From positions 2,240,001-2,304,000 of the forward strand of contig CAXXTU010000002.1 of NCBI GenBank assembly GCA_963662655.2: a stretch of DNA of 64,000 nt. Direction: 5' to 3'. The position numbers and the translations under genes were made by a program. Within the stretch, counting starts at the first letter, position 1. Each line of letters opens with the position of its first letter. Below are positions 7,293 to 52,477 of this stretch, one piece after another. The notes beneath the pieces were generated by a model. The model made no database searches, had not been told where the DNA came from, and saw nothing but the letters and a program-made list of their open reading frames with translations. The DNA comes from Candidatus Cloacimonadales bacterium (GTDB taxonomy: Bacteria; Cloacimonadota; Cloacimonadia; Cloacimonadales; JAIOQZ01).

Positions 7293-7421
7293 TCCGGCGG
7301 CAGATTGGTTCGATCTGTGTACAAGGCGTGGTGTTTCACAGCTTTTGTTCCTTTTGACATTAGTTTCAAAAGGTGTGGTATATCCACGTCTTTCACACAG
7401 ATCGGGCGAAGATGCCCCGGA
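7293..7421 (+). repeat. Hairpin element copy 1
   Basis: GCAGATTGGTTCGATC-16nt-TGTTT...GTATAT-16nt-GATCGGGCGAAGATGC with complementary arms. Confidence 0.9.
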
Positions 7422-7465
7422 GCACCAACTGGCAGAAATGGACATCCTCTCTTCTCTCTCGCCTT

Positions 7466-7580
7466 AATCCTGATCATCCCATAAATCCCGAAAATCCTGC
7501 TTCAAGCAATCTCCAGGAACGCAGGCATCCTGCCTGCTCCCTCTTCCCAATCCTATTAATCCAATAAATCCTGATTCAAA
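7466..7580 (+). repeat. Two short arrays of 9-bp (A/C)ATCCnnnn units ending TCAA, flanking a REP-like hairpin
   Basis: 7466-7505 (4 units) and 7549-7580 (3 units) both end AATCCTG(A/C)TTCAA; GGAAC-GCAGGCA-TCC-TGCCTGC at 7516-7537 lies between them. Confidence 0.7.
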
Positions 7581-7587
7581 CATTTCC

Positions 7588-9669
7588 CTAATACTTGATC
7601 AACTTCTCCCGCTCCACGTAGAATGCCGCATACTGCTCACGCACCGGCTGATTTTCCTTTTTATCGAGCTGGGGATCGTCGCTGACGAGATCGAAGGCGT
7701 CCTTTCTGGCCAGCTTGAGCCACTCTTGATGCCTAATCAGGTTCGCATGCTTGAAATCCGGCATGCCCGACTGCCGGGTTCCGAAGAAATCTCCCGGACC
7801 GCGCAGATCAAGATCCTTCTCGGCGATGTCAAAACCGTCGTTCGTGCGGGACATGGTGGATATCCTCTCCCAGGCATCCTTAGAAACCGGCGGGTAATAG
7901 ATAAGATAGCACGTCGACTGCTGAACCCCGCGCCCCACTCTCCCCCGCAACTGATGCAACTGGCTGAGCCCGAAACGCTCCGCGTGCTCGATCATCATGA
8001 TCGTCGCGTTAGGGACATCGATTCCCACCTCGATCACAGTGGTCGAGACCAGAATGGAAAACTCCCGCTGCTTGAAGGCTTCCATGATCGCGTCCTTCTC
8101 CGAAGACTTCATCCTGCCGTGCAACAGCGCTGAATTGAACTCGGGAAAAATCTCCTGCGAGATGTCCCTGAAAAGCGTCTCCGAATCGAGCAGATAGCTC
8201 TTGTCGGATTCCTCCACCAACGGGCACACCAGATATGCCTGCCGACCTCGCTTCAACTGCTCGCGAATCTCTCGATACACATCGAGCTTTTTCTCGCCCG
8301 TCTTGTGAACCGTCCGGATCGGCTTTCTTCCCGGGGGCATCTCGTCGATCACACTCACGTCCAGATCGCCGAACGCCGTCATCGCCAGCGAGCGTGGTAT
8401 CGGCGTTGCGGACATGTGCAGCAGATTCGGTTTCCGGCCTTTCTCGCTCAGGAGTGCTCGTTGCTGCACCCCGAAGCGATGCTGCTCGTCCACGCAGACA
8501 AAACCGACATCGTGAAACTTCACGCCCTTTTGGATCAACGCGTGGGTACCGAATACCAGATTGACCTCTCCGGAGGCGATCTTCTCGAGGGTGGCCTTCT
8601 TGCCTTTGTAATTCCCGCCCTTGATCATCGCGACGCCAATATCCGGCTGGTTTTCCAACAAACTCATCGTGTTGCGATAGTGCTGCTCTGCCAGAATCTC
8701 GGTCGGGGCCATGAGAACAGCCTGATAGCCGTTTTCCACCGCAAGGAGCATCGCGAACAGCGTAACGATGGTCTTTCCCGAACCTACGTCCCCCTGAAGA
8801 AGGCGATTCATCTGATGCTCGGATTCCATGTCCGCGACGATTTCGCGAATCACTCTCTTTTGCGCGCCGGTCAGCTCGAACGCGAGGCTGTTTTTCAACT
8901 TTGTCGTATAGGTCTTCCGAACCGGGAGTGAAACGCCGAGGGTTTCTATCTTTCGCGTTCCGTACACCCGTGCCAGAAGAAGCTGATGATAAAAAAACTC
9001 TTCGTAGATGAATCGCTTCCGAACCGACTCCACGTCGGTCTCGGGAACGGGGAAATGCATCTTCTCCATCGCCGATTTTCTATCGGGAAACTGGTAGTGT
9101 TCGATGATCCGTTGTGGTAATGTTTCGGCGATGTGATCGTGGTACTTGCTGAACGCGCTGACCACCAGCTTGCGCATCATGTTCAAGGTGATTTTCTCGG
9201 TGAGCGGGTAAACCGGTAGTATCTTCCGGTTTTTCCAGAAGTCGTCGGAAGTGTCCTCGTCCAGGAGAATCTCGATGTCGGGATGGATAATCTGCGGCAG
9301 GCCCTTGTAGCCGGCTACCAGGCCGGACACCCAGACCGACGCGCCCTCCTTCAACTGATCGGAAAGCCATTTCCCGTAACGGAACCAGGTACAGAGCAGC
9401 ACCGCTTCGCCATCGGTAACCGACACATTGAGCTGGTTCTTTCCCCGGGCGGTGCGCCGCTCTTCAATAAACTGGATCGTTCCCACAATCGCGCATTGCT
9501 TGTCGATCTCGATATCGCGGATCTTTTGCATCGTGTGGCGATTGATATAACTGCGCGGAAAGCACTCCAGAAGATCACCCACGCTGTATATGTTCAACTT
9601 CGCAAGAAGACGGGCGCGATACTCTCCCACACCCGTAAGAAATTGTATTTCGGTTTTCCAGGGATTCAT
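7588..9669 (-). CDS. recG: ATP-dependent DNA helicase RecG
   Basis: MNRLLQGDVGSGKT, DEQHRFGV.QR, MSATPIPRSL, QLRGRVGRG, RGPGDFFG.RQSG; start moved to 9669 to avoid overlap with the upstream gene. Confidence 0.97.
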   Translation of the reverse strand: MNPWKTEIQFLTGVGEYRARLLAKLNIYSVGDLLECFPRSYINRHTMQKIRDIEIDKQCAIVGTIQFIEERRTARGKNQLNVSVTDGEAVLLCTWFRYGKWLSDQLKEGASVWVSGLVAGYKGLPQIIHPDIEILLDEDTSDDFWKNRKILPVYPLTEKITLNMMRKLVVSAFSKYHDHIAETLPQRIIEHYQFPDRKSAMEKMHFPVPETDVESVRKRFIYEEFFYHQLLLARVYGTRKIETLGVSLPVRKTYTTKLKNSLAFELTGAQKRVIREIVADMESEHQMNRLLQGDVGSGKTIVTLFAMLLAVENGYQAVLMAPTEILAEQHYRNTMSLLENQPDIGVAMIKGGNYKGKKATLEKIASGEVNLVFGTHALIQKGVKFHDVGFVCVDEQHRFGVQQRALLSEKGRKPNLLHMSATPIPRSLAMTAFGDLDVSVIDEMPPGRKPIRTVHKTGEKKLDVYREIREQLKRGRQAYLVCPLVEESDKSYLLDSETLFRDISQEIFPEFNSALLHGRMKSSEKDAIMEAFKQREFSILVSTTVIEVGIDVPNATIMMIEHAERFGLSQLHQLRGRVGRGVQQSTCYLIYYPPVSKDAWERISTMSRTNDGFDIAEKDLDLRGPGDFFGTRQSGMPDFKHANLIRHQEWLKLARKDAFDLVSDDPQLDKKENQPVREQYAAFYVEREKLIKY

Positions 9670-9700
9670 AAGCAACTCACAGGGAAAAACGCATGCCGGA

Positions 9701-12532: not shown

Positions 12533-12533
12533 A

Positions 12534-14069: not shown

Positions 14070-14108
14070 TATATCTCCAATCTATTTTATTATAAAAACT
14101 TTGCGTGG

Positions 14109-14687: not shown

Positions 14688-14761
14688 ACTTTCCACCATG
14701 AAGAACGTTACCTGAAGTCCCCGCAATACGTCAAGACGAATATTATCTGAACCGGTATTCG

Positions 14762-14944
14762 GAATTCGCGGAAACAGATTCGTTCGCTTCCGCCCGGAGC
14801 CGTATTCTTACACGACGTAACGAAATTAGGTACTCTGGGATACGATGCGGGGGAAGTTCCAGGAAAGATATGGAAATTGTATTCGTGGGAGTCGTGTTGT
14901 TATACGGCGAAGGGCGGATCGGGCGAAGATGCTCCGCGCAATTC
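14762..14944 (+). repeat. Hairpin element copy 2 (divergent, long loop)
   Basis: ACAGATTCGTTCG...GATCGGGCGAAGATGC; arms TCCGCCC/GGGCGGA, GCCGTAT/ATACGGC and ACACGAC/GTCGTGT pair. Confidence 0.85.
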
Positions 14945-14950
14945 GAGACC

Positions 14951-15076
14951 GGCATGGTACCTACGCTCGATCCCAACTCCCAACATGGATATAACACGTC
15001 ATAGGGACTATCGAACGCGAATAAATGACGTGTAACACCATGCTGGGAGTTGGGATCAAACGAATCTACTCACACC
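14951..15076 (-). repeat. Hairpin element copy 3 (minus strand)
   Basis: Reverse complement reads GTAGATTCGTTTGATC-CCAACTCCCAGCATGG-TGTTA-CACGTCAT...ATGACGTG-TTATAT-CCATGTTGGGAGTTGG-GATCGAGCGTAGGTAC. Confidence 0.9.
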
Positions 15077-15092
15077 TCTGTGCACGTGTTGT

Positions 15093-16271
15093 TTATAAGA
15101 ACTCGATGTGGGTTTCTTTCAGATATTTTTTTTCCAGGACTTCGCAAAAATGTTTAATCAGATTGCGCCGGATCTCCAATTCTTTGGGTAATGAAGGGTC
15201 CTGGTGTGCTTCATTGATGCGCGTTCCGACAATAAACTGAACGATGTCGCTTTCCAGGAAAAGCCTGGCCAGCGTTTTGATCGGGCTGTTTTTCACCTGC
15301 TCCAGGGGATGTTCCTTATCGAGGATACCCAAGCATTTACTCAGGGTAATCGTTCCCTCCGTAACCAGCTCAAATCCTTCCATGGTAGCCGTCGGAGGAA
15401 TATCCGCCCCCCGTTTGACCTCATCCAGATTTACCGACAAGGGCAGATTCAATTCTCGGGAGATGATGGAGGAGGTTGTTCCGCCGCAAATGACTTTCCG
15501 TCCCTTGAAATCACGTGCAATCTGCGCGAGCGTTTTATCTTTCTCGATATCGTACGGCGGACCTGACATCACCAGTAGTTTGCGCGGTTCACGCAGGTAA
15601 AGCGCGGCGCAGGTGATGTCGTCTTTCGCCTTGTGGTTATCGTATTCAAGCGCTCTTCTGGCTGTCTGATAGCAAAGCTCTCCTGCGGAGATGGATCGAT
15701 TATCATTGAGCTCGTGAACCAGGAAGCGCTCCACGCCTTGCTCCGACCATCCTAAAGGCATGTATGCGGATCCCATCCCCGATTGCGTAACGCCATCCGA
15801 GAAAAAGACTAGGCGGTCTTCCGGTTCCATCTTGAACACGGAATAGAACAGCCGTCCTTTGCGATCGTTACTCAGGATAATCTCGTTTTTCTTGACGGGC
15901 TGGCTCTTGCCATCCCGCAGAAGCACGATGGATGGATTGTCGTATTCAATCACCCGTACTTTGCCATCCGTTCCGGCATCGACGATCGTGAAGGTGGAGT
16001 AGCCGATCTTACGTTTTGAGCAAACCGGCAAGGTCTCCAGAATAATCTCGGCAGCCCGTCGGATGTCCATATCGGAAAGCACGAAACGGGAAGCCATCGT
16101 TGTGGTGAGAGTCGCCAGCACGCCGGCTTTCACGCCACTCCCCAATCCGTCTGCGAGAACCGAAACGAGGCGCCCCTTGTCCTTCAGGCTGGTGAAATGG
16201 TCACCGCTGACACCCTGGCCGTCCTTACGAAGCTGATAGTAATCAACCTCGAGATAAACTTCTCCCATCAA
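15093..16271 (-). CDS. SpoIIE/PP2C-family Ser/Thr phosphatase (HfsC-like)
   Basis: SGD, LADGLGSGVKA, FSDGVT, DDIT motifs; follows the sensory hydrogenase. Confidence 0.88.
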   Translation of the reverse strand: MMGEVYLEVDYYQLRKDGQGVSGDHFTSLKDKGRLVSVLADGLGSGVKAGVLATLTTTMASRFVLSDMDIRRAAEIILETLPVCSKRKIGYSTFTIVDAGTDGKVRVIEYDNPSIVLLRDGKSQPVKKNEIILSNDRKGRLFYSVFKMEPEDRLVFFSDGVTQSGMGSAYMPLGWSEQGVERFLVHELNDNRSISAGELCYQTARRALEYDNHKAKDDITCAALYLREPRKLLVMSGPPYDIEKDKTLAQIARDFKGRKVICGGTTSSIISRELNLPLSVNLDEVKRGADIPPTATMEGFELVTEGTITLSKCLGILDKEHPLEQVKNSPIKTLARLFLESDIVQFIVGTRINEAHQDPSLPKELEIRRNLIKHFCEVLEKKYLKETHIEFL

Positions 16272-17962
16272 TCCTGTCCTTTTCTGGAAAACGATTGAAC
16301 AATCGAATTGAGCAGCACTTCGCTGTCGGCGGCATTCTCACCGAGCAGGAACGCGATCTGCTGTACGGTGGTCAGGTTTTTCTTCATCACCTCTCGCGCG
16401 TTCTGAATAATCTTCTCGCTCTGGATAACCGGTTCCGTGACGTCCTGCAAAACCCCTCCAACCGTGTGGTGCGGTTCCACCGTAAACACCGTGAGGCGGA
16501 TCACCTTCTTGTTGTGTTCGATATCCATGACCATCGATTCGTTTCCGTCCTGCAGAACCTGTTTGAACACCTCGTGGAACGGAATCAGCCTTTCCAGATA
16601 GACACCAGCAAGCTCGGGATTGACCTCGTACACGATGCTCGCATCTCCACCGACGATATCCACGAAGCGTGGATTGCACTCGAGGATTTTAAGGTCACGA
16701 TCGACAATCACCACGCCGCTGGGCATCGTTTTGAGGAGCGCGTTCGCCTTGTTCTGCGCCAGTTTACGTAAATGGGAAACACACATGGCCGGTTCGGCCC
16801 GATCCTCGAGCATGGCAACCGCGAAATCCTGACACGAGTTGTATCCGCAACCACCGCAATTCAGTTCGTCGACATGCCGCACCTTTCCGATGCGCAGCAA
16901 CGCTTGAGCGATCTGATCGGAAGTAAACGGCTTCTTTGCTTGCGGCTCGGGATAAAACTGTTTCTCGATCTTGCGGATGCTGTTCCGCGCCTCTTCCTCG
17001 GTGGGGAGCGGAGTCGATTTGAGAATCTGCGAGCGCTTGACGACCGTCGCTCCGCGCTTGGAGACCTGCGGCCCGTTCACGCAACCACCTTCGCATGCGA
17101 GCGCTTCGATGAATACTGGCGCGTCGAGATGAATCTTCCCGATATCCTCGATCGATTCCATGATGTCCTTCACGCCGCTCACGCACAGGAATTGCACATC
17201 CGGGAATTGCCTGTTCTGGCGAATTCCGTCGATCATCCCGCCGTCGATCGGATACCAACCGCCTTCTTCCGCTTTCTCGGGCACGAAGGCGGCCGTATCG
17301 TTCGAGACTACGATTGACTCGCTGTTGAGCCATCTGCGAAGCTCTTTGAAGGTCAGGCTCACGTCGATCGTTTCGCCTGTCTCCGTCTTCTTGGCGATAC
17401 ATGGGCTGAAGAAGACCACCCCGATATCTTCCCCGAACGTATCTCGCAGAATTCTGCCATGCGCTTGAACCGGTGACATCAAGTCGGTGAGGTTGCCGAT
17501 CTGATCCGGGTAATATCGCTCAACGAGCCGAACGACGGACGGACACGCAGTGGAGATGTATACTTTTTTCTCACCCTCGGAAAGAATCCTGGCGCAGGCA
17601 GCGGAAACCTCCTGCGCCCCCAATGCCGTCTCCGAAACTCCTGCAAATCCGAGCTGCTCGATGCACGCCAGAAGCTGACCTTCGGGGATATCGGCAAACT
17701 CGCTTCGGAATGATGGTGCAACTGAAGCGTAAACGGGTTTCCCCGATGCGATGAGCGCTCGAGCCTGATCGATATCGTCTCGAACCTTCTTCGCTCCCAC
17801 GGGACACACCAGCGTACACTTTCCGCAGTACAAACAGTCTTCCGCGATAACTGCTGCGCTGCCATCGCGAACAAGAATCGCTTTGACCGGGCAGTTTCTG
17901 ACACATTTATAGCAGTCCTGGCACTCGGTTTTCTCAGTATAGATCGGATTCTCAGCGTTCAT
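16268..17962 (-). CDS. Putative sensory [FeFe]-hydrogenase with PAS domain (HydS/HfsB-like, group C)
   Basis: 2x[4Fe-4S] N-terminus; H-cluster motifs STACP, SPCIAKK, EALACEGGCVNG; LNCGGCGYNSC FeS motif; C-terminal PAS (MPSGVVIVD...N). Confidence 0.88.
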   Translation of the reverse strand: MNAENPIYTEKTECQDCYKCVRNCPVKAILVRDGSAAVIAEDCLYCGKCTLVCPVGAKKVRDDIDQARALIASGKPVYASVAPSFRSEFADIPEGQLLACIEQLGFAGVSETALGAQEVSAACARILSEGEKKVYISTACPSVVRLVERYYPDQIGNLTDLMSPVQAHGRILRDTFGEDIGVVFFSPCIAKKTETGETIDVSLTFKELRRWLNSESIVVSNDTAAFVPEKAEEGGWYPIDGGMIDGIRQNRQFPDVQFLCVSGVKDIMESIEDIGKIHLDAPVFIEALACEGGCVNGPQVSKRGATVVKRSQILKSTPLPTEEEARNSIRKIEKQFYPEPQAKKPFTSDQIAQALLRIGKVRHVDELNCGGCGYNSCQDFAVAMLEDRAEPAMCVSHLRKLAQNKANALLKTMPSGVVIVDRDLKILECNPRFVDIVGGDASIVYEVNPELAGVYLERLIPFHEVFKQVLQDGNESMVMDIEHNKKVIRLTVFTVEPHHTVGGVLQDVTEPVIQSEKIIQNAREVMKKNLTTVQQIAFLLGENAADSEVLLNSIVQSFSRKGQD

Positions 17963-17978
17963 AGGGTGATTCCTTGTT

Positions 17979-18212
17979 TCACAGATTTTCGTCCAAAAGC
18001 CGGACGATGTTTTCCGGTTGCACGTTATGATAGCTTACGCCATCGATGATCATGTTGGGGCCTTGTCCGCACGCGCCAAGGCACAAAGAGCCTTCCAAGC
18101 GGACAAATCCTTCCAGGCCGTGCGATTTGATATATTCCTCGATCTTCGACAGGTTTTCGCGGTTCGCCCTTGCGAAGCAGGAGCTTCCCATGCAGATTTT
18201 GATCACTTTCAT
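17979..18212 (-). CDS. Thioredoxin-like [2Fe-2S] ferredoxin (HfsA-like)
   Basis: ICMGSSC...CLGACGQGP; start at 18212 right after the hydA stop. Confidence 0.85.
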   Translation of the reverse strand: MKVIKICMGSSCFARANRENLSKIEEYIKSHGLEGFVRLEGSLCLGACGQGPNMIIDGVSYHNVQPENIVRLLDENL

Positions 18213-18214
18213 GG

Positions 18215-20212
18215 TTACGCCCTTACCGAGTCCTGTATCATCGCGACCACGCGATCGAGCGTAGCGAAGTGCAGCACGTCGTCGCCAACCGCGACCGATG
18301 GTCCCTTGTCGCATCTTTCGGTACAGAACGTTGCCCCGAGATCGACCTTCTGCGCCCAGTCCTTCTCCTCGATCGTCTTGAGAAGATTTGCCAGAAGATC
18401 ATGAGCGCCACGGAGATAGCAGCTTGTTCCAACGCATACGCGCACCTTGACGCGCTCCTGCGTCGAGGATCCGGTCAGAGAGATGCTCTCATCCGCAATG
18501 CGCTTGCGGCTGGTGTAGTGCGTGTGAAGCATTTTGTGCGCGACTTCGCTGTTGGGCTCGTCGAGCAGCGTGTCGTACAGTTCCTGAATAAACGGATTGC
18601 GGTGGGATTTCTTCAAGGGGCTGATCTTGTCTGTATTGGCGATAGCCTTCGCACGGGCCTGACGTTCTTCGGAGGAATGGACGATCGGTTGACCCGCTCC
18701 GCCGATGCACCCGCCCGGGCAGGCCATCACTTCCACGATGTCGTATTGCAGCTCGCCGCTGAGGACTTTTTCGGCAACGTACGCCGCGTTTTTCAGGCCA
18801 TGAACCACAGCCAACCGCAGGGTTGTTGACCCAAGCGTGATTTCCGTCTCCCGAATCCCTTTTATATCACGGATTTCATCCAGATCGATCGAATCGGGTC
18901 TCTCTTCGCCCAGCACATCAGCGGCATACCGCACGACAGCCTCGCTCACACCGCCGGTTTTACCGAAAAGGACGCCGGCTCCCGTTGCCATACCCATGGG
19001 CATGTCCATCGATTCCGGTTCCAGGGAAGCGAAGTCGATACCGGCTTCCTTGATCATGTTGCCCAGCTCCTGGGTCGTAAGCGCGAAATCGACATCCTGG
19101 AATCCGTCGGTGCGGAATTCCGGACGCGCGCACTCGTATTTCTTCGCCGTACACGGCATGATCGATACCACGGTGAGTTTTCCTTGGGGTATTCCCATCC
19201 TCTGCGGCAGCATGTTACGCGCCAGCGAGCCGAACATTTGCTGAGGCGAGCGGCAAGACGAGAGGTAAGGAAGCAGGTCGGGATGCGACTGCTCGGCGAA
19301 CTTCACCCAGGCCGGGCAGCAGGAGGTGAACACAGGGAGCTTCCCGGCAGCGCTCTTGCGCTTTAGTAGCTCGTTCGCTTCCTCGACAACAGTCAGATCG
19401 GCAGCGAACGAGGTGTCGAACACCAGATCGAATCCCAGCATGCGCATGGCAGCGACAATCTTACCGGTCGTGACTTCTCCCGAAGGCATGCCGAACATCT
19501 CGCCGATCGCCACCCGGACAGCCGGAGCGATCTGCGCGATCACCTTCTGATCGTTGTCTTGAATCGCTTCCCAGACTCCGCCTGTTTGCGAGCGGATAGT
19601 AATCGCGCCCACCGGGCAAACTGCCGCACACTGTCCGCAGTTCACGCAGCCGACATCGGCAAGGCTTTTGTTGAAGGCAGGAGACACCACCACGTCTTCG
19701 CCGCGGTTGGTAAAATCGATCGCCGCGATGCCCTGAATCTCGTCGCAGTAGCGAACGCAGTCACCGCAGAGAACGCATTTGTTGGGGTCGCGAACCAGAG
19801 CGATGGAGCCGAGGTCTTTCTCCTTGGGATTCTTGGTCTTGCGATAGCGCACGTTCTCTATGCCGAGCTTGGCGCTGAGAGAGCGCAGGCTGCAAGTTTC
19901 CGAACGCGCACAGGTCGGGCAGGCCTGGTCGTGGTTTGCCAGCAGCATTTCCACGATGTTCTTGCGCAGGCGTTGAATCTGCTTGGTGTGAGTGAACACC
20001 CGCATGCCTTCTCTTGGAGGTGTGGAGCAGGAGGTTACAATCCCCTTTCCTTCGATCTCCACCAGGCACAGACGGCACGCGCCGTAAACGCTGAGTTCGG
20101 AATGGTAACAAAATGTAGGGATATCGATGTGCGCCTTACGCGCGACGGCCAATATATTCTTCTCCCCTTCCAGAGGGATCGGGCGGTTGTTTATATAGAT
20201 AATGGGTTTCAT
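18215..20212 (-). CDS. hydA: [FeFe]-hydrogenase catalytic subunit (group A3) with C-terminal [2Fe-2S] domain
   Basis: FTSCCPAW, MPCTAKKYE, EVMACPGGCIGGAGQP; N-terminal FeS clusters; C-terminal CVGTSC...CTERCDKGP. Confidence 0.95.
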   Translation of the reverse strand: MKPIIYINNRPIPLEGEKNILAVARKAHIDIPTFCYHSELSVYGACRLCLVEIEGKGIVTSCSTPPREGMRVFTHTKQIQRLRKNIVEMLLANHDQACPTCARSETCSLRSLSAKLGIENVRYRKTKNPKEKDLGSIALVRDPNKCVLCGDCVRYCDEIQGIAAIDFTNRGEDVVVSPAFNKSLADVGCVNCGQCAAVCPVGAITIRSQTGGVWEAIQDNDQKVIAQIAPAVRVAIGEMFGMPSGEVTTGKIVAAMRMLGFDLVFDTSFAADLTVVEEANELLKRKSAAGKLPVFTSCCPAWVKFAEQSHPDLLPYLSSCRSPQQMFGSLARNMLPQRMGIPQGKLTVVSIMPCTAKKYECARPEFRTDGFQDVDFALTTQELGNMIKEAGIDFASLEPESMDMPMGMATGAGVLFGKTGGVSEAVVRYAADVLGEERPDSIDLDEIRDIKGIRETEITLGSTTLRLAVVHGLKNAAYVAEKVLSGELQYDIVEVMACPGGCIGGAGQPIVHSSEERQARAKAIANTDKISPLKKSHRNPFIQELYDTLLDEPNSEVAHKMLHTHYTSRKRIADESISLTGSSTQERVKVRVCVGTSCYLRGAHDLLANLLKTIEEKDWAQKVDLGATFCTERCDKGPSVAVGDDVLHFATLDRVVAMIQDSVRA

Positions 20213-20222
20213 CGTTCGCTCC

Positions 20223-22100
20223 TTAGGAAATCGCCTTGAATTTACAGATTTCGATACAGGCTCCGCATTTGATACACTTTCCGGGATCGATCACGTGCGG
20301 TTGTTTGACGGTTCCGGAGATTGCGCCCACCGGGCAGCTTCTCTTGCAAAGCGTACAGCCCACGCAGATTTTCGGATCGATGGTGATTGGGACCAGCGCG
20401 GAACACTCCCGAGTAGGACAATACTTTCCGTTCACGTGCGCTTCGTATTCGTCGCGGAAGTAACGCAGGGTCGATAGCACCGGACTTGGCGCGGATTTCC
20501 CCAGGCCGCAGAGCGAGGTGATTTTCACCGTCTCGGCCGTGTCTTCCAGAAGCGGAATCGTGGTCTCGTCCGCACGACCTTCGGTGATGTCCTCCAGGAG
20601 TTCCAGCATCTGGCGGGTTCCTTCGCGGCACGGGACGCACTTTCCGCAGCTCTCGTGCTGGGTGAATTTCATGAAGAAGGAGGCGATACGCACCATGCAG
20701 GTGCTCTTGTTCATCACCACCAGGCCCCCCGAGCCCACCATCGCGCCGATGGAAGAAAGCGAATCGAAATCGAGCGGGACATCGAGGTGTTCTTCGGTGA
20801 GGCAGCCGCCGGAAGGTCCGCCGATCTGCACCGCCTTGAACGCGGTGTTATCGATGTTGCCGTTCTCGTCGATCACGCCACCGCCGATATCGAAAACGAT
20901 CTCGCGGATGGTCGAACCGAACGGAACCTCGATGAGACCGGTGTTCACGACATGCCCCGTGAGAGCAAAAGCCTTGGTTCCGGGTGACTTCTCCGTTCCG
21001 ATGGAGCGGAATTTTTCCACGCCGTAACGGAGAATCTGCGGTACCGTCGCCAGCGTTTCAACGTTGTTGATGACCGTGGGCTTTCCGAAGAGTCCCACTT
21101 CTGCCGACCGCGGCGGTTTGGTACGAGGCATTCCCCGTCCGCCCTGGATGGAGGCGATCATGGCCGAGCCTTCGCCGCAGACGAACGCTCCCGCGCCTTC
21201 CATTACCTGGATGTCGAACGAATGGCCGGATCCGAAGATGTTATCGCCCAGGATGCCATGCGATTCCGCGTCCTTGATGGCCTTGCGGATCCGTTTGCAG
21301 GCCAGCGGGTATTCCATGCGGACATAGACGTACCCGTGATTCGCAATGGAACCCCTCGCCGCGATCAGCATACCTTCGATCACGCTGTGGGGATTCCCTT
21401 CGAGGATACTGCGATCCATAAACGCCCCCGGGTCGCCTTCGTCCCCATTGCAAATAATGTATTTATCTTCGGAAGCTTGCTTTCTCGAGAGATCCCATTT
21501 AACGCCAGCGGAAAAGCCGCCACCGCCTTTGCCCCTTAAACCTGCTTCTTTGTATGTCGTGCAAATGTCTTCCGGAGCGAGTTCGAGCCATGCCTTGCGA
21601 GCGGCTTCGTAGCCTCCACCCGCGATGTATTCGTCGATGCTCTCGGGGTCGATGTGACCACATTCCTTGAGCACGTTGCGGGTCTGTCTCGAATAAAACG
21701 GTATATCCTGGGTAGTCTTGCAAGGCGAATGATCGGCAGGGTTCTTGTAAAGCAGGCGGTCAACGGCTTTTCCGTTTTGCAGAGTGGTATGTACGATTTC
21801 CTCAGCATCTTCTGGCTTAACATGCGTATAGAGAAATCCTTCCGGTTCCACGGTAACCAATGGACCAACCTGACAGAAGCCCTGACATCCGCTCTGAGAG
21901 AGAAGCACGTCGTGTTTCTCCTCACCCCTGAGCTCGATCGTCACATCGAGGCCTCTCTCGGAAGCGATACGTTTGAGAGCCGCGTGAACCTTCAACGATC
22001 CGTTCGCGATACATCCCGTACCTGCGCAAATAATCACCCTTCGCTCGCAACCGGTGCGAGCCGTCTTGTATTTCAAGGCGATTTCGTTCAAGTTACACAT
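20223..22100 (-). CDS. hydB: NADH/FMN-binding hydrogenase beta subunit (NuoF-like)
   Basis: GLRGKGGGGF, NGDEGDPGAFMDR, GGPSGGC, ESCGKCVPCREG; N-terminal [2Fe-2S] and C-terminal 2x[4Fe-4S]. Confidence 0.93.
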   Translation of the reverse strand: MCNLNEIALKYKTARTGCERRVIICAGTGCIANGSLKVHAALKRIASERGLDVTIELRGEEKHDVLLSQSGCQGFCQVGPLVTVEPEGFLYTHVKPEDAEEIVHTTLQNGKAVDRLLYKNPADHSPCKTTQDIPFYSRQTRNVLKECGHIDPESIDEYIAGGGYEAARKAWLELAPEDICTTYKEAGLRGKGGGGFSAGVKWDLSRKQASEDKYIICNGDEGDPGAFMDRSILEGNPHSVIEGMLIAARGSIANHGYVYVRMEYPLACKRIRKAIKDAESHGILGDNIFGSGHSFDIQVMEGAGAFVCGEGSAMIASIQGGRGMPRTKPPRSAEVGLFGKPTVINNVETLATVPQILRYGVEKFRSIGTEKSPGTKAFALTGHVVNTGLIEVPFGSTIREIVFDIGGGVIDENGNIDNTAFKAVQIGGPSGGCLTEEHLDVPLDFDSLSSIGAMVGSGGLVVMNKSTCMVRIASFFMKFTQHESCGKCVPCREGTRQMLELLEDITEGRADETTIPLLEDTAETVKITSLCGLGKSAPSPVLSTLRYFRDEYEAHVNGKYCPTRECSALVPITIDPKICVGCTLCKRSCPVGAISGTVKQPHVIDPGKCIKCGACIEICKFKAIS

Positions 22101-22593
22101 CGTGCCCCTCCTGCTTTTTCAATTCGTTCACAATCTCGATGGCCTTATCTGGCGTTACCTGCCCATACACGTCGTCATCGACGACCAGAACAGGTGCGAG
22201 TCCGCATGCGCCGAGGCACGATACGGTTTCGAGCGTGAAAAGCATGTCCGGCGTGGTTTTCTTCTTCTCGTTGAGGCTCAGATGCTCTCGAAGGGCTGTG
22301 ATAATCTTGCCGGAACCTTTAACATGACAAGCGGTTCCGTCGCAAATCCGCAGAATGTGTTTACCCTTGGGTTCAAGTGAAAAGTGGCTGTAAAATGTTG
22401 CAACCCCATATATCTTGGCCGGCGAGACGCCCAAGGATGTCGCGACGAATACAAGCACCTCCTGGGGAAGATAGCGATACTCTTCCTGGACGGCCTGCAA
22501 TATCGGGATGATCATCTTCGGGTCCCGCTGGTGCTGATCGAGTATCTCGATCACCTTACGGAAACTACGGTTTGCTTGCAGGGTATCTGTCAT
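22093..22593 (-). CDS. hydC: Hydrogenase gamma subunit (NuoE-like)
   Basis: GVATFYSHF, CDGTACHVKG, CLGACGLAP. Confidence 0.93.
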   Translation of the reverse strand: MTDTLQANRSFRKVIEILDQHQRDPKMIIPILQAVQEEYRYLPQEVLVFVATSLGVSPAKIYGVATFYSHFSLEPKGKHILRICDGTACHVKGSGKIITALREHLSLNEKKKTTPDMLFTLETVSCLGACGLAPVLVVDDDVYGQVTPDKAIEIVNELKKQEGHDV

Positions 22594-22607
22594 TGTTTCT
22601 CCATGGT

Positions 22608-23249
22608 TTATTCAGATTGTTTCATCAGTTTGACGGCCAGCCTCTGAGAGAGTACGGCCAGGCTGGCATATAAATCGACATTCTCGACGATGATGTTTTC
22701 GGGGACAACAAGCTGAACCGGAGCAAAGTTCCAGATCGCCATGATTCCCGATGCGAGCATCATATCCGCCACAGACTGAGCTGCTTCCGGCGGCACCGTT
22801 ACAATCCCGATATGAACATGCAGACGCTGTGCGAGATTACTGAATTTTTCCATGGCAAAAACAGGGACATCATGAATCTTCGTATCTATTAGTATAGGGT
22901 TTGTATCGAATGCTGCAAGTATTTTCATCCCTTTGGTTTCGAAAATCTCGCGATAACCCATGATCGCGGAGCCGAGGTTTCCCGCTCCAACGATAAAGGC
23001 TTCCGAGGAGTCGTTCCAGTTCAGGAAATCACTGATCGCAAGAGCGAGCTCGTTCACCTTGTGGCCCACCTTTGGCACGCCTACTACACCTGTGGAAGCG
23101 AGATCTTTGCGAACCTGCGTCCTGTGCACTCCGGTGTGATTGGCCAGCGAGGTTGCCGAGATGTACTCCTGCTTATTCTTTTGCGCTTCCAGTATGATTT
23201 GCAGGTACTGGGACAGCCTTCTCAGGGTTAAAATCGATACCGGTTTCAT
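22608..23249 (-). CDS. rex: Redox-sensing transcriptional repressor Rex
   Basis: TLRRLSQY, QVRKDL, VGAGNLG, I.AIWNFAP; AAGGAGA RBS before ATG at 23249. Confidence 0.93.
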   Translation of the reverse strand: MKPVSILTLRRLSQYLQIILEAQKNKQEYISATSLANHTGVHRTQVRKDLASTGVVGVPKVGHKVNELALAISDFLNWNDSSEAFIVGAGNLGSAIMGYREIFETKGMKILAAFDTNPILIDTKIHDVPVFAMEKFSNLAQRLHVHIGIVTVPPEAAQSVADMMLASGIMAIWNFAPVQLVVPENIIVENVDLYASLAVLSQRLAVKLMKQSE

Positions 23250-23266
23250 GATGTCTCCTTTCATTT

Positions 23267-28706: not shown

Positions 28707-28746
28707 CCTTTCTGACGTGTACGTTAGAAGTAAAATACTACCTCGA

Positions 28747-28873
28747 GGCGCGAGCAGATTCGTTCGATCCGCTCCTGAACAGGGTGTTTCCCGGTGGAGT
28801 TACCAATATCAAAATGCCTACGAAACCGGGGTATATCCCTGATCAGGAGCGGATCGGGCGAAGATGCCACGCC
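28747..28873 (+). repeat. Hairpin element copy 4
   Basis: GCAGATTCGTTCGATC-CGCTCCTGAACAGGG-TGTTT-CCCGGT...ACCGGG-GTATAT-CCCTGATCAGGAGCG-GATCGGGCGAAGATGC. Confidence 0.92.
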
Positions 28874-28969
28874 GGTGAAACATCTACTGCAAACTATCGA
28901 TCCCTATTACATTTTCCGCTTTGACAAATCAAAAACCGGGAAATAGAGGAGGCATAAATTGTTTTATAT

Positions 28970-35548: not shown

Positions 35549-35641
35549 TGTGGCCTCCAAATTCTGAACAAGAAATTCGAGTGGTTCAACGTCAAGATTT
35601 TTTAAATGCCATTCAGGTAAAAAATAGCTCGTTCGTGGAAA

Positions 35642-35768
35642 GTTCGTGAGCAGGTTCGTTCGATCTGTCTCGAAGGCGTGGTGTTACACGTCTATTCTTC
35701 TCGCTCGATAGACACTTGACGTGTTATATCCACGCTGGAGGGACAGATCGGGCGAAGATGCCACGAAC
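35642..35768 (+). repeat. Hairpin element copy 5
   Basis: GTTCGTG-A-GCAGGTTCGTTCGATC...GCGTGG-TGTTA-CACGTC...GACGTG-TTATAT-CCACGC...GATCGGGCGAAGATGC-CACGAAC; abuts the stop codon at 35770. Confidence 0.92.
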
Positions 35769-39759: not shown

Positions 39760-39765
39760 GGATTC

Positions 39766-41579: not shown

Positions 41580-41606
41580 TTAGCAGTCCAACGCATGGTC
41601 TGCTAA
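41580..41606 (+). promoter_or_regulatory. CIRCE (HrcA operator) upstream of clpB
   Basis: TTAGCAGTC-N9-GTCTGCTAA vs consensus TTAGCACTC-N9-GAGTGCTAA, just upstream of a TTGACG -35. Confidence 0.8.
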
Positions 41607-41673
41607 TTTTTCCTTGACGCTTTCAACTGACTCCGTTATCTTATTCTAAAAAGATCATCCAAACGGAGGCGCT

Positions 41674-44253: not shown

Positions 44254-44266
44254 ACCTGAAACCTCA

Positions 44267-44392
44267 GTTCGGGAGCAGATTCGTTCGATCTGCCGCGTAA
44301 ACGTGGTGTTATGCACCTTATTTTTACGCTCGATAGTCCAAAGGTGCATTATATCCACGTTGGAGCGCAGATCGGGCGAAGGTGCCCCGAAC
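44267..44392 (+). repeat. Hairpin element copy 6
   Basis: GTTCGGG-A-GCAGATTCGTTCGATC...AACGTGG-TGTTA-TGCACCTT...AAGGTGCA-TTATAT-CCACGTT...GATCGGGCGAAGGTGC-CCCGAAC. Confidence 0.92.
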
Positions 44393-44553
44393 GTCATTGC
44401 TTGATACACCGTATCCCTTTTTCTCGCTTGACAAGAAAGCTTTCTTAATATTTTCTCCCTGCGAAAGCTGGGAGAGTTCTATTCGAAAATCCATATACGA
44501 TATATCGCAATCAAATCACCAATAGCCCTAACCCATTACCCAAAGGAGTTTAC

Positions 44554-45267: not shown

Positions 45268-45411
45268 CGGGAATCGCCTTCCCCAGCACATGGATTTATC
45301 TGGTATTCTATAGCTTATAAGAAGAAGCTTGACAAAACTTTAACTTCCGAATTGTATTCAGTCAGGATAGCATCATCAGTGAATTTGAAACAAACCTTGC
45401 TGGAGGCGCCG

Positions 45412-47280: not shown

Positions 47281-47291
47281 AACATTCGCGA

Positions 47292-47419
47292 GGCGGGAGC
47301 AGACTCGTTCGATCTTCCTTTTCGACGGGGTGTTTCGCGCCTTATTATCTCGTGTCCGGTAGTTTCGAAGGCGCGGTATATCCCCGGTGAAAAGGAAGAT
47401 CGGGCGAATATGCCTCGCC
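47292..47419 (+). repeat. Hairpin element copy 7
   Basis: GCAGACTCGTTCGATC-TTCCTTTTCGACGGGG-TGTTT-CGCGCCTT...AAGGCGCG-GTATAT-CCCCGGTGAAAAGGAA-GATCGGGCGAATATGC. Confidence 0.92.
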
Positions 47420-47543
47420 GGATGAACATTGCTGGACACCTATTACATTAACCTGTTCAAACATTTATTTTGACAATCAGTGATTATTATTCATATCGTG
47501 ACAAATACATTAAGAAAATGTATTTGTGAACTGGAGGATCTAC

Positions 47544-48605
47544 ATGAAAAAACATTGGCTGTATTTCTTAATTCTTTTACTGCTTTGTGGTTCCATGCAG
47601 GCAAAGCCTCAGGGATTCTTTACGATGGAGGAAATTGCCGACAAGATCAAGAGCGCCTTCAATACCGAAATCGTTAGCCACATTGGCGACATCATAGCTG
47701 ACGATGAGCACTTCAACGTTTTTGGCCAGAAAATAATCGATCAAGTCAAGCAAACAGATCAATATAAGAATGCGCCGGAGGCGCAGCAGCAGCTGTTTCT
47801 CGAGAACATGAACCAGGGATTCGAAGAAGACCGAAAACAGCATACGGATAATTTGATTAACTCAATCATCTCCTTGGGGGAACGTTTCACGAAGCTCATT
47901 CTCGATTATCCTGAGATCGATTACTACTCGTTGGAAGTTTACTCGATTCAATACAGTACGAAGCAGGAGATGTATGGAATTACCATACACGAGAATACGA
48001 TCGTTTCACTGTTCAACGAAGACTACATGATCGAGTGCAACCTGCCGGAAGTCCTTGAAATCGATGGCGGATTCATTCTCGAGAAAGCGCCCGAATTCTC
48101 GGTTTACAGGTACGGTTTTTCCGTCGACGAGATCGCTTCCGAGATAGCTCGGGCATTCTCTCTTGCCGATTACAGGGTTATCGATTCACTTTATGTATCG
48201 GACACGCAAATGCAGAAGCTTTATGATACCTACACGGCCAGCTATCGCAAGGGAGAACAGTACCTCGCCTACACGGATAGCCAGAAAGCCGAGTTCGATA
48301 AAATCCTCGAGGACGGACGCTCCGACCTGATTTATGAAGTATTCAAGAAAAAAGATCAGAGTGAAGAAGCCTTCAACACAGTCATTTTCGGGAATAACTA
48401 CTTTGATTATACAACATTCCAGGTTGAAATGGCTGCCCCGGGATACGTCACTGTGGAAGAAGGCGTCAAATCGATGAACGAAGTCACAGTAACAATCAGC
48501 AACAATGAATATAACATACGCATCGTCCTCCACGAACTTCTTTCGTTCGGAACACAATGGAAAATCGTCGGCACGATAGATTTCACAGTAGAAGACAAGG
48601 AATAG
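47544..48605 (+). CDS. Secreted hypothetical protein with internal duplication
   Basis: Signal peptide, GGAGG RBS; two similar halves. Confidence 0.75.
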   Translation: MKKHWLYFLILLLLCGSMQAKPQGFFTMEEIADKIKSAFNTEIVSHIGDIIADDEHFNVFGQKIIDQVKQTDQYKNAPEAQQQLFLENMNQGFEEDRKQHTDNLINSIISLGERFTKLILDYPEIDYYSLEVYSIQYSTKQEMYGITIHENTIVSLFNEDYMIECNLPEVLEIDGGFILEKAPEFSVYRYGFSVDEIASEIARAFSLADYRVIDSLYVSDTQMQKLYDTYTASYRKGEQYLAYTDSQKAEFDKILEDGRSDLIYEVFKKKDQSEEAFNTVIFGNNYFDYTTFQVEMAAPGYVTVEEGVKSMNEVTVTISNNEYNIRIVLHELLSFGTQWKIVGTIDFTVEDKE

Positions 48606-49258
48606 TAGCAGTTAATCGAGAAGAATTAACAATCCGGTTCGCGGATGATTTTATATTGGCCGATACAGCCGCAATCGAGACTGTCACGAAGGAATGGATT
48701 TCGCGCTTACAAGGGTATCACCCGATCGATCGCCTGGAAATATCAATCGGAACCTTCTACGTCGAGAATCCTTACGTAAAAGTATCTGCCGCCGGCGATG
48801 AGATCGATAAAATCTGGCTTGAAATCAATTCTTACCAGTTCGATCTGAATCATTTTCTCGAAGAGATATTGCCCAGAACGCTGGCACACGAATTTCACCA
48901 CATCATCCGCCTTCGCTATCATCAGGAGTTTCATCTGGCCGCGCTGGCAGTCAACGAAGGCTTGGCGGATCATTTCATGATGGAAGTAACCGGCTGCAAG
49001 AAACCCGGATACGTTCAGCCAATCGATCCCGATTTGCTGAAAAAACTCGAGCCATTCATTCAACGAGACCTGTTCAATAAGGATTTCAATCACCGCATCT
49101 GGCAAAAGGGGAGCAGGGAGCAGGGAGTTCCGCATACTTTCGCGTATCGATTCGGATTCATGCTGGTCGATCGATATTTTCTCCAAAACCCGGAGAAATC
49201 AGCCTTGAACAGCTTCGGTCTCGATTGCCGCGAGATAATTTCATTATTCGTTCTGTAA
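48557..49258 (+). CDS. Putative Zn-dependent protease (DUF2268-like)
   Basis: LAHEFHHIIR...NEGLADHF...AY..GF.LV; start uncertain. Confidence 0.75.
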   Translation: MENRRHDRFHSRRQGIVAVNREELTIRFADDFILADTAAIETVTKEWISRLQGYHPIDRLEISIGTFYVENPYVKVSAAGDEIDKIWLEINSYQFDLNHFLEEILPRTLAHEFHHIIRLRYHQEFHLAALAVNEGLADHFMMEVTGCKKPGYVQPIDPDLLKKLEPFIQRDLFNKDFNHRIWQKGSREQGVPHTFAYRFGFMLVDRYFLQNPEKSALNSFGLDCREIISLFVL

Positions 49259-49353
49259 CAACCTGAGCGAGCGTATTCGGGCATGGGGAATATCTCCCCG
49301 CATTTTCCTTTACATTTCTGCGCCGACATGCACCGTTGGTTCAGGAGGAACTG

Positions 49354-51015
49354 ATGGAATCGATCAACGACCTCGGCCAGGATATCATTCATCTGGCGGG
49401 AAAAGGGCTTTCCCGTTCTCTCTTCTTAGCACAGTTGTCCGAACAGCTTTTCAATTTCACGGAATGCGATGAGATCGAAATCCGTATCGCGAAACCACGG
49501 TTAACCTATCGCTTTCTATATGATAAATCCGACCGTAAAACGAGCTTCAAACGGGTAAAATTCAGGAGAGCCGAGGGAATCGTCGTTCCGGTCCTCCAGC
49601 AGAAAACAGCCCTCGAATCCTTGTGCGAAAAGCTCTATGAGAAGCGGTACCACCCGCAACTCAAGTACCACTATCAACGCAGTTGCATCGTCGTGGAAGA
49701 TACCATGAACTTCGCTCTGCCGGATCCGGACACGCTTTATAAAGAAACCGGCTGGGGCTCCCTGGCGCTGCTGGCGTTCTCATCCAGCGGCAACATCCTT
49801 GGTCTGATCATTCTGAAATCCTTGAATCGCAAGGGATTCCGCCTGGGAGACGTGGACATCTTCAAGAGCATCGCCGAGACCATCGGAATCGCCATCGTAT
49901 TCCGCAACACGCAGTTTGCCTTGAACGAGCGCGTCAAGGAGCTGAGCTGCCTGCATGGCATCAGTCAGCTCGTGAACGATTACAGGCTCAGCAAAGAAGA
50001 CAAGTTTCAGCGCATCGCGGAAATGATACCGCCTGCGTTCCAGTATCCCGAACTGACCTCCTGCAAGCTCCTCATCGATGGGAAGCTCTACGAGAGCGGC
50101 AACTCGAGCAGGCTTATACACACCATGGAGAGCATGCTGATTTATGAAGGGAAATCCTTTGGTAAGATCACCGTCATGCTCGGGAAGGGATCAAAATCGG
50201 AACTGGTCGAATTCCTCCCAGAGGAGCAAGCGTTGCTCGATTCGATCAGTCGCGCAATTTCCACGCTTGTTGCGCGAACGCGGTTCGAGCGTGAGCGCAA
50301 GGAGCTCGAGGAGCAGCTTCATCACGCCGACCGCCTGGCAACCATCGGCCAGTTGGCGGCCGGTGTTGCGCACGAGTTGAACGAGCCGCTTTCAAACATC
50401 CTCGGATTCGCTCAGTTAGCGCAGAAATCCCTCGATAAGCCCGAGATGCTCGAAGGAGACATCGGTAAGATTGTGAAAGCGGCGCTGCACTCTCGTGAGA
50501 TCGTCAGGAAACTGCTCTTGTTCGCCCGTCAGATGCCGGCGCAGAAATCGGCGGTAAATCTCAACGACGTCGTGAGAGAAAACGTCTCGCTGCTAGACAA
50601 CCGCTTAAAAAGCGGAGGCATCGAGCTTCGGCTCGAGCTTGAGGAAAATTTACCCGGGATCACCGCGGACCGCTCACAGATCAGCCAGGTCATCATAAAC
50701 CTCACTGTCAACGCGGTGCAGGCAATGCCCTCCGGTGGAACGCTGACGGTCTCGACGCAATGCGACCGCTCGGCAATAACGCTACAGATTCAAGATACCG
50801 GCACCGGCATCGCCAAGGGGATCCGACAGAAGATTTTTATGCCGTTTTTCACCACAAAGGACATCGGCGAGGGAACGGGACTGGGATTATCCGTGGTTCA
50901 TGGAATCATTACCGCCCACAAAGGTACAATCGAAGTGGAGTCGGAAAGCGGGAAAGGATCGATCTTCCGCGTCAAGCTGCCCTGTGAACACTCCGGGAAA
51001 GGAGAGCAATCATGA
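49354..51015 (+). CDS. Sensor histidine kinase with GAF-like domains
   Basis: GQLAAGVAHELNEPL, NL.VNAVQA, DTGTGI, FFTTK, GTGLGL; AGGAGG RBS before 49354. Confidence 0.93.
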   Translation: MESINDLGQDIIHLAGKGLSRSLFLAQLSEQLFNFTECDEIEIRIAKPRLTYRFLYDKSDRKTSFKRVKFRRAEGIVVPVLQQKTALESLCEKLYEKRYHPQLKYHYQRSCIVVEDTMNFALPDPDTLYKETGWGSLALLAFSSSGNILGLIILKSLNRKGFRLGDVDIFKSIAETIGIAIVFRNTQFALNERVKELSCLHGISQLVNDYRLSKEDKFQRIAEMIPPAFQYPELTSCKLLIDGKLYESGNSSRLIHTMESMLIYEGKSFGKITVMLGKGSKSELVEFLPEEQALLDSISRAISTLVARTRFERERKELEEQLHHADRLATIGQLAAGVAHELNEPLSNILGFAQLAQKSLDKPEMLEGDIGKIVKAALHSREIVRKLLLFARQMPAQKSAVNLNDVVRENVSLLDNRLKSGGIELRLELEENLPGITADRSQISQVIINLTVNAVQAMPSGGTLTVSTQCDRSAITLQIQDTGTGIAKGIRQKIFMPFFTTKDIGEGTGLGLSVVHGIITAHKGTIEVESESGKGSIFRVKLPCEHSGKGEQS

Positions 51016-52328
51016 ATCCGGAACGAATCCTGATCGTGGACGACAATCCAGATACCCGTGAAATGATCTATCGCTACTTATTCGGCACGTACGCCGAGGT
51101 CATGACGGCTTCTTGCATGGATGATGCGTTAAACCTTCTGGAGGAATACCCGTTCGATCTTGTGATCACCGATTACAAAATGCCCCACGGATCGGGGCTG
51201 GACATCGTAAAGCATATCCGACACAACTACAGGAATATAGGCCTGATGATGGTTACCGGATACGCCACGGTCGAAGGCGCAGTCCAGGCAATGAAATCCG
51301 GGGTTGAGGAATATCTCCCCAAGCCATTCACCGAAGAAGAACTCCTGCACGCAATCGAGAACCTCGCCGGGAAGATCAGAACGCGCCGGAACATGGATGC
51401 GGATGAGCCGCTTGAAGCGAAGTATGGCATTATCGGAAATTCCAAGGCGATTCGCAGTGTATACGGCATGATCGAGAAGGCCTCGCAGGCAGTAGCAACC
51501 GTGCTGATATCCGGCGAAAGCGGAACGGGAAAAGAGCTCGTCGCACGAGCCATTCACTACCGGAGTCACAAGAGCTCGGCTCCCTTCGTTCCGGTCAATT
51601 GTTCGGCGATACCCGAAGAACTCATGGAAAGCGAACTCTTCGGATACGTCAAGGGAGCTTTCACCGGTGCGGACACCTCTCGGGCCGGATTCTTCCAGAC
51701 GGCTGAGGGCGGTTCTATATTCCTCGACGAGATCGGCGAGATCAGTCTGGCAACGCAGGTTAAGCTCCTCCGCGTGATACAGGAAAGGGAGATTTATCTG
51801 GTTGGCTCACGCAAGCCAGTTCCCGTTAACATACGCATCATCGCCGCAACCAACAAAGACCTCCGCAAGCTCACAGACAAAGGCAGCTTTCGCGAAGACC
51901 TGTATTATCGTCTGAACGTCCTCAATATCGAGCTTCCCCCTCTCCGTGAGCGCGACAACGATCTCGAACTTCTCATTCGCCACTTCTCCAGGAAATTCGC
52001 CCTCGACATGGGAGTCGATTCACCCGTTTTCGCCGATGACACGCTCCAGATTCTCAGAAATTACGCCTTTCCGGGGAATATCCGAGAATTGGAGAACCTG
52101 ATTCAACGACTCGTGGTGATGTGCGGGGAAAACCGCATCGAACCCGCTGAACTCCCCAACTATATGAGATACGCACAGCCAAGAACCAGAAACCTCAAAA
52201 AAACACTCGCTCAAATGGAAAGCGATTACGTTAGGCAGGTTCTGGATTCCGTGGGAGGAAACAAGTCGGAGGCAGCCAGAATTCTCGATGTCGACCGCAA
52301 AACCCTGCGCTCGAAACTCAAAACCTGA
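51012..52328 (+). CDS. Sigma54-dependent response regulator (NtrC family)
   Basis: Receiver (VDD, TDYKMP, KPF) + AAA ([14 protein letters not shown]) + HTH. Confidence 0.95.
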
Positions 52329-52353
52329 CCGAAATAGTCGATAACGCCCGGGA

Positions 52354-52477
52354 GACGGGAGCATCTTCACCCGATCCATGTACCGCGTGGTGTTTCACGG
52401 CGTAGCTTTTAATATATCTTCCGCTCGGAGCCGTGGTATATCCACGCGGTACATGGATCGGGCGAAGATGCCACGTC
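52354..52477 (+). repeat. Hairpin element copy 8 (symmetrised outer arm)
   Basis: GCATCTTCACCCGATC-CATGTACCGCGTGG-TGTTT-CACGGC...GCCGTG-GTATAT-CCACGCGGTACATG-GATCGGGCGAAGATGC. Confidence 0.92.

Follow-up and report, generated by a model that had tools for sequence, protein, structure and literature searches.

The 64,000-nt window analysed here (positions 2,240,001 to 2,304,000 of contig CAXXTU010000002.1 from Candidatus Cloacimonadales bacterium) carries eight copies of a long intergenic hairpin element. These copies belong to a dispersed repeat that is genus-specific and non-coding, and its orientation tracks the replichore, independent of transcription, in four genomes. The element likely folds as single-stranded DNA (ssDNA), and an enzyme that processes ssDNA, most plausibly one of the HUH/REP (repetitive extragenic palindrome) type, likely copies it and exchanges it between loci, while replication sets the orientation that persists; we favour this explanation with modest confidence. 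The family is apparently undescribed, as a literature search beyond whose reach lay subscription papers and supplements gave no prior description of it.

The source genome of the window (G000; 3.81 Mb in two contigs, C1 and C2, 98.95% complete) was searched as a whole with profiles, which gave 127 two-ended copies and about 15 one-ended or divergent hits. Covariance model searches, in which the best 23 candidates per genome were scored, gave at least 22-23 copies in each of the three congeners (G001, G002 and G003), and more than 200 element sequences were collected across the four genomes of the genus. Outside the genus, the same searches returned one weak match in one genome of an order sample of 141 genomes, and no match among the 138 further genomes of a phylum sample of 141. 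A pattern scan of a species-genome collection gave 12 matches, every one in the three congeners, and the viral and metagenome scans gave 0 matches to the element pattern. Two exact patterns that match G001-G003 were absent from G004 and G007. A loose two-box regular expression proved too permissive as the main test (17 matches in the window against 2-8 in 20 shuffles).

From base to tip, the element is built of a 6-bp outer stem, a bulged A, 3 bp, a tandem GA/GA mismatch, an 11-bp box 1, a middle stem, box 2, an inner stem and a loop. The reference copy is a class I element (box 2 in the common polarity) between convergent genes (28745..28874, +). Its left arm carries the outer stem, the bulged A, GCA, the GA of the tandem mismatch and the left strand of box 1 (28747..28769, +; box 1 at 28759-28769), followed by the 14-nt left arm of the middle stem and the left strand of box 2 (28770..28789, +; box 2 at 28784-28789). 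The right arm (28831..28874, +) carries the right strand of box 2 (28831-28837), the middle stem, the right strand of box 1 (28852-28862), GA and the outer stem. Both T.G wobbles of box 1 are retained in 93 of the 114 parsed copies. The middle stem measures 14-15 nt in 97 of these copies, which agrees with the narrow spacing of two boxes proposed in the initial annotation. Box 2 is a 6/7-nt mismatched spacer flanked by dyad half-sites, and each of its arms is itself a spaced dyad. The extrahelical T earlier assigned to box 2 is recovered in part, since predicted folds give one bulged T or else a 4x5 or 5x6 internal loop. The covariation reported for its last position was reproduced (T.G 21, A-T 15, C-G 6 and G-C 4 in 46 copies). 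Sequence conservation ends about 12-13 nt outside GA/GA on the left and fades across about 20 nt on the right.

The middle stem had been described as paired in every copy, which turned out not to be the case. Among 107 parsed copies, 40 stems have no more than one mismatch and count as perfect, 56 are imperfect and 11 intermediate. Within this stem lies a conserved 3x3 purine loop that had been missed, with A.G and G.A each present in 46 of the 107. Both strands of three tested copies fold far better than shuffles (z from -5.65 to -7.93, 0/200), and in the 46-copy alignment 92.7% of cells pair, with two-sided change in 37 of 48 pairs (0/500 shuffles, a control that ignores the relatedness of the copies). 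As had been suggested, one folding strand is preferred: the top strand (the T.G/GA strand, hereafter the T.G strand) folds better in 119 of the 127 copies with DNA parameters and in 125 with RNA parameters. G.T exceeds A.C in the middle stem (55:19) and the inner stem (19:5); the outer stem gives 21:18.

One architecture describes most of the eight window copies, and the copy at 14762 forms a separate class in which the box-2 strands are swapped between the arms (class II). For 136 sequences of G000, box 2 has the common polarity in 105, swapped strands in 10 and the left strand twice in 1; another 9 were labelled as having the right strand twice, of which 3 proved genuine on inspection and the others were deletions or parse errors, and 11 were unparsed. 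The 89 congener sequences comprise 57 common, 19 swapped, 1 left twice, 1 right twice and 11 unparsed. Because the swap preserves the polarity of each strand, it is no double-strand inversion.

The tip of the hairpin is informative as well. Short-loop copies of the congeners end in a GNA triloop in 25 of 27 cases (CGAAG in 23 of them), and loop-cassette hairpins do so in 17 of 26, counts that do not represent independent events. Hairpins capped by GNA triloops are generally extra stable as a class, a hallmark of DNA and not of RNA. Among such sequences, d(GCGAAGC) forms an extra-stable DNA mini-hairpin (PMC10527192). The triloops that terminate the short variants thus point to folding as DNA. 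In about 25 copies the loop is occupied by a separate two-hairpin repeat that also occurs outside elements and is tandemly amplified in one copy. The same repeat, often in tandem, stands free at G000:C2 184464, 606882, 2317521, 2347014, 2512146, 3135498 and 3160082.

Initially, covariation was taken as a sign of structural selection. This interpretation is not supported, as arm-to-arm rewriting and interior exchange generate covariation too. In G000, 37 of the 40 perfect middle stems resemble the right arm of the imperfect type (18 of 21 families; p=0.0015), and in box 1 the left strand was overwritten from the right in 3 copies, with no case of the reverse. The polarity of rewriting would match fold-back synthesis on the bottom strand, in most copies the nascent leading strand. 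Template switching is able to generate arm-rewriting patterns (PMC8794818, PMC6357072). The outer, middle and inner modules show no correlation with one another (r -0.06 to 0.09), and within each module the two arms do correlate (0.6-0.8). Of 15 orthologous pairs compared among G001-G003 (two copies used twice), 8 have an interior that is more similar to a paralog in its own genome, and the outer stem is retained in 6 of the 8 pairs with exchanged interior. Since arm rewriting and interior swaps produce covariation, covariation is no proof of selection. The free covariation of this family looks largely mechanistic, and a significant R-scape result alone could reflect either selection or mechanism; more can be learned from the conserved mismatches. 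The family is a worked case of strong covariation that may arise without selection for an RNA structure, and it offers a natural set of long hairpins with several mismatched motifs fixed while the stems are rewritten.

The orientation of the copies was then compared with replication and transcription. GC skew and a dif-like site place the terminus of G000 at about 0.80 Mb and the origin at 2.7-2.77 Mb; the dif-like site, at G000:C2 ~796,580 (796.6 kb), coincides with the skew maximum. In this test, which the initial annotation had proposed, the T.G strand is the lagging-sequence strand in 94 of 127 copies (p=6e-8), a result stable for three origin choices. Hence the better-folding strand is the leading-strand template. 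The bias is present in both replichores (55/74 and 35/48), and in convergent gaps, where transcription cannot choose, 38 of 53 copies follow the replichore rule (p=0.002). Congener regions with positive skew follow the rule in 15/15, 19/22 and 10/10 cases (44/47 in total), and all 20 of the 22 model matches of G001 that lie where skew was sampled do so too. Perfect stems are distributed 37:3 and imperfect stems 38:18 across the two orientations (3/40 against 18/56 in the exposed orientation; p=0.005), and all three slippage-deleted remnants seen lie in the exposed orientation. The rarity of perfect stems and the remnants in that orientation fit loss on the lagging template.

A structured RNA family selected at the RNA level, either a 3'-UTR stabiliser or a small RNA, was the alternative raised in the initial annotation, and the orientation data disfavour it. 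Motifs of RNA type, namely the G.U wobbles, the tandem GA and the 3x3 GA loop, count for an RNA, as does a loop motif shared between species. Moreover, 117 of the 127 copies lie behind at least one gene end; convergent gaps are favoured, with 53 copies although they make up 148 of 1032 gaps overall, and divergent gaps are avoided, with 10 copies although they make up 267 of 1032. However, orientation follows replication even in convergent gaps, 43 of 64 copies in co-directional gaps are antisense, and the triloop closure is DNA-like. All Rfam families scored below the gathering score: a check against Rfam 15 gave 0 hits at that score in the window, and 14 copies gave merely sub-threshold generic hairpin matches. 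We therefore regard an RNA as quite improbable. That the element is not a terminator, as stated earlier from the eight copies, is upheld.

Under the folded-ssDNA explanation, the T.G/GA strand would be the one that is read, and a structure-specific nuclease or transferase would read the boxes; their recognition by a protein, as proposed in the initial annotation, is still an inference. This strand may survive best on the leading-strand template, where it would rarely be single-stranded, as for the attC sites of chromosomal integrons. Pairing of the stems would be maintained by fold-back synthesis, in which the left arm is copied from the right, and copies that lose the mismatched boxes would stop spreading, which would keep the boxes conserved.

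Several observations weigh against this explanation. No clean empty site, target motif or target duplication was found. Near-identical copies are lacking in G000, hence the spread in G000 is old. The flanks of orthologous copies have often diverged further than the copies themselves, as a host function would also predict, and the triloop counts are not independent of one another. IS200/IS605 elements act on the lagging-strand template (PMC6006769, PMC3971601), opposite to the leading template that carries the better-folding strand here. The polarity of arm rewriting is weak in the congeners (13 right against 7 left, with 2 unclear, on matrices built from G000). Finally, family-by-family profile searches found no cognate enzyme. 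Y1_Tnp is absent from G000 by both a library profile and our own profile, and 0 of 19 Y1 loci of relatives have an element within about 1.5 kb. TnpB was found in 0 of 8 genomes, G000 included, and neither GxxExxY nor IS110 was found in G000. DUF559 genes occur in the congeners and not in G000, and no element copy lies in the DUF559 loci. The integron integrase profile TIGR02249 passed its cut-off in 0 of 8 family genomes, although 0 of 14 controls passed it either.

The remaining enzyme searches gave no candidate either. Y2_Tnp was matched in 0 of 5 genomes, a result that carries no information, as the profile was equally silent on the control. Among the six tyrosine recombinases of G000, only the XerD-like one adjoins a copy, and no congener xerD junction showed one. 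The single reverse transcriptase gene has no copy in its locus; it is split by one stop codon (L212:1141-2700). In G002, which carries 17 IS110 copies of two families (L228-L238), 0 of 12 IS110 loci have an element, and no hairpin association was seen in the loci checked. No protein family is enriched next to copies, no candidate was found among the open reading frames (ORFs) listed near congener copies, and the window is without a recombinase or transposase gene, as had been noted.

The element works like attC sites and REPINs, yet it has the defining features of neither, nor those of miniature inverted-repeat transposable elements (MITEs); the likeness to the logic of attC and REP ssDNA substrates that was originally pointed out is supported. 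With attC it shares strand-specific folding, unpaired features at fixed distances, free stem sequence and a variable terminal loop (PMC5371416, PMC7439510), as well as a folding strand on the leading-strand template. Chromosomal attC sites obey the same orientation rule, which limits attC folding (PMC5371416). The element differs from attC, including CALIN and SALIC, in having no R-box ends, IntI or cassette arrays; the RYYYAAC/GTTRRRY ends, whose absence had been noticed in the window, occur in 0 of 127 copies. In addition, its boxes lie 14-15 bp apart and many copies stand between housekeeping genes. Like REPINs and BIMEs, it consists of dispersed extragenic long hairpins with conserved ends, a variable yet paired spacer and compensatory changes (PMC3116915, PMC6006769), is multi-copy and persists in one lineage, and stands in mosaics together with further repeats. 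The main stem starts from a G(C/T)AG foot in 98 of 123 copies, which recalls REPs, but this foot is GCAG in 85 and GTAG in 13 of the 123, at variance with the GTAG/GTGG tag that in REPs stands 0-2 nt ahead of a 20-40 nt hairpin in each arm. Unlike REPs and REPINs, its arms have no REP-size hairpin of their own in predicted folds, conserved mismatched boxes lie inside the stem, the replichore bias is strong and no RAYT gene is flanked by copies. A dispersed repeat tied to replication polarity is known from chromosomal attC; here it occurs without an integrase. Dispersed palindromic repeats are common as a class, and until an enzyme is found the element, although DNA-level, counts as one more member of the broad REPIN/attC-like class of folded-ssDNA dispersed repeats. 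It is also an exact bait for finding a new ssDNA-processing enzyme.

The resemblance to attC allows two recombination models. In the first, which we put forward tentatively and consider unlikely, a structure-specific recombination system acts on folded ssDNA without an integron: an enzyme would read the mismatched boxes, swap interiors among more than 100 sites and take box 2 in either polarity, and the sites would be occasional hinges for gene-order shuffling. In the second, attC-like sites of an unknown or host tyrosine recombinase would swap hairpin interiors and rearrange the chromosome, which seems to us rather unlikely. Box 2 does look like a pseudo-two-fold site with a mismatched spacer, and all four strand combinations occur. 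The orientation rule matches that of chromosomal attC (PMC5371416), whereas the missing R-box ends, IntI and cassette arrays oppose such sites.

Gene order bears on the tyrosine recombinase in particular. It is very heavily shuffled within the genus: between G000 and G001/G003 (L106-L165) a break occurs about every 6 kb, at a protein identity of about 78%. In 1.2 Mb compared between G000 and the congeners, 198 junctions are broken and 600 retained. Of 31 junctions with a congener element, 27 are synteny breaks, and elements stand at breaks more often than other large gaps do (21/24 against 99/190). Against G001, 31 of 35 G000 gaps with an element are broken compared with 136 of 204 others (p=0.009), but against G003 the excess is not significant (18/23 compared with 60/92; p=0.32). 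It owes much to convergent context, as convergent gaps without an element break regardless (14/15). Breaks are seen in the sister genus too, which has no element, in one of two 20-kb windows. Twelve comparisons, several of them involving a common G000 site, concern genes inverted relative to the fork; in 8 the element is flipped and so stays lagging. Such flips are accounted for equally well by hinge-type inversion and by independent oriented insertion. Element-driven, strand-preserving shuffling was rejected, because blocks keep their replichore orientation in just 60 of 102 and 28 of 44 cases. At orthologous 3' gene ends an element is present in both genomes in 12 of 25 cases against 22 of 123, above expectation (p=0.003).

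A host role offers a further alternative. The copies could be double-stranded docking sites for a host protein, BIME-like and bound by a nucleoid protein or a topoisomerase, with the palindrome merely upheld by template switching and gene conversion and the folded strand read by nothing. Persistence at orthologous sites with diverging flanks, the spaced dyad in each arm of box 2, the BIME-like mosaics that hold congener copies and the failure to find a mobilising enzyme would all fit. This model leaves unexplained the GNA triloops on one strand, the excess of G.T over A.C and mismatches that exist only in the folded form, and we judge it unlikely but not negligible.

Decayed MITEs of a DDE transposase, of the ERIC or Correia type, are a very improbable origin. 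The size is similar (126-137 nt), and a long imperfect palindrome, loop insertions and intergenic location are shared (PMC3184786). Against this, direct repeats are not above control, TA lies near the left end in just 7 of 127 copies, the ends are not conserved terminal repeats and the replichore bias is strong. ERIC, bcr1 and CIR (105-170 nt) likewise resemble the element in size, intergenic dispersal, lineage restriction and loop insertions, and bcr1 also in compensatory changes (PMC3184786). The element differs from them in having no TA or 5-bp duplication, and in being one rod with several asymmetric motifs, DNA-type triloops and interchangeable interiors.

The presence of copies differs between syntenic regions, and copies have been gained and lost between the congeners. 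In G003, the interiors of two copies that lie 3.7 kb apart are identical, and the pair has in common a left edge about 12 nt before GCA and a tail of about 75 nt; G002 lacks one of the two. This pair, with its sharp 5' end and common tail, is the one that bears on a comparison with IS200/IS605 or IS91 derivatives. The single near-empty site differs by a 346-nt composite without a clean junction, and in three contig runs from one study the joints are explained by other element copies. In the congeners the hairpins sit in mosaics, whose upstream modules resemble repeats that flank a Y1 gene bearing the subclass 1.2 signature and whose downstream modules resemble repeats around DUF559 genes. Three of the five module patterns share the strand bias (17:2, 32:2 and 24:6), and the two self-complementary ones give 36:24 and 31:29. 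In G000 the mosaic association is nearly lost, with 5 module matches around 127 copies and a weak tail signal.

The genes flanked by similar modules were also recorded. HUH-Y1 genes resembling subclass 1.2 (L058, L059 and L064) are flanked by their own palindromic repeats, which recur elsewhere in the genomes, and two of them adjoin xerC. The HUH-Y1 subclass 1.2 signature is described in PMC6006769, which lists no REP-type repeats for this subclass. DUF559 genes (L215 and L216) are flanked by multiple copies of a palindromic repeat dispersed in the congeners, for which a literature search gave no description. In G002, the right box of a truncated element is interrupted by some 18.5 kb of inserted DNA (L174:17200 to L175:15750), which has inverted ends of the TGCA type and a 5-bp duplication; no obvious transposase is among its ORFs listed. 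A Mu-like prophage gene set is present in three to five related copies in G000 (C1 11558-20595, C2 ~2.745-2.758 Mb and other sites).

Other roles of box 2 were considered. It bears no resemblance to a dif site, and it was rejected as an extended -10 since it is not retained in the congeners and a promoter scan listed none in copies. GATC is not enriched in the G000 genome (0.85).

All eight hairpins of the initial annotation were recovered in the window at their intergenic places, 7 of 8 on the plus strand. Of the eight, five run in the sense direction of the gene upstream, and the other three are antisense to the genes on both sides. The first copy (7291..7422, +) is of class I and antisense to both neighbours; it is followed by a pyrimidine-rich 3' tail with other short repeat modules (7423..7585, +), a mosaic context resembling that of the congeners. 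The class II copy (14765..14939, +) has a long loop and stands tail-to-tail with a class I copy that has a perfect middle stem (14950..15078, -), the sole window copy in the minority (leading) orientation. Beyond the reference copy, further class I elements lie at 35641..35768 (+), with an imperfect middle stem of the ancestral type and its 3x3 purine loop, at 44266..44392 (+), 13 nt behind clpB, and at 47290..47420 (+). The last copy (52350..52478, +) departs from the architecture once ascribed to it, in that its left box 1 was rewritten as the complement of the right box.

Tail-to-tail pairs, often of a class I and a class II element, number eight: the window pair at 14765/14950 and seven on G000:C2 (13782/13945, 90000/90170, 414246/414429, 1230311/1230476, 2349467/2349610, 2468381/2468543 and 3341169/3341331). 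As two of the pairs have their spacer in common, the doublet was duplicated as a unit. The genes of the window are ordinary metabolic and regulatory ones. The ORF at 6470-7234 resembles a secreted hypothetical protein, and the minus strand at 15093-23264 encodes Rex and then a multimeric [FeFe] hydrogenase cluster with a sensory-type hydrogenase and a SpoIIE-type phosphatase.

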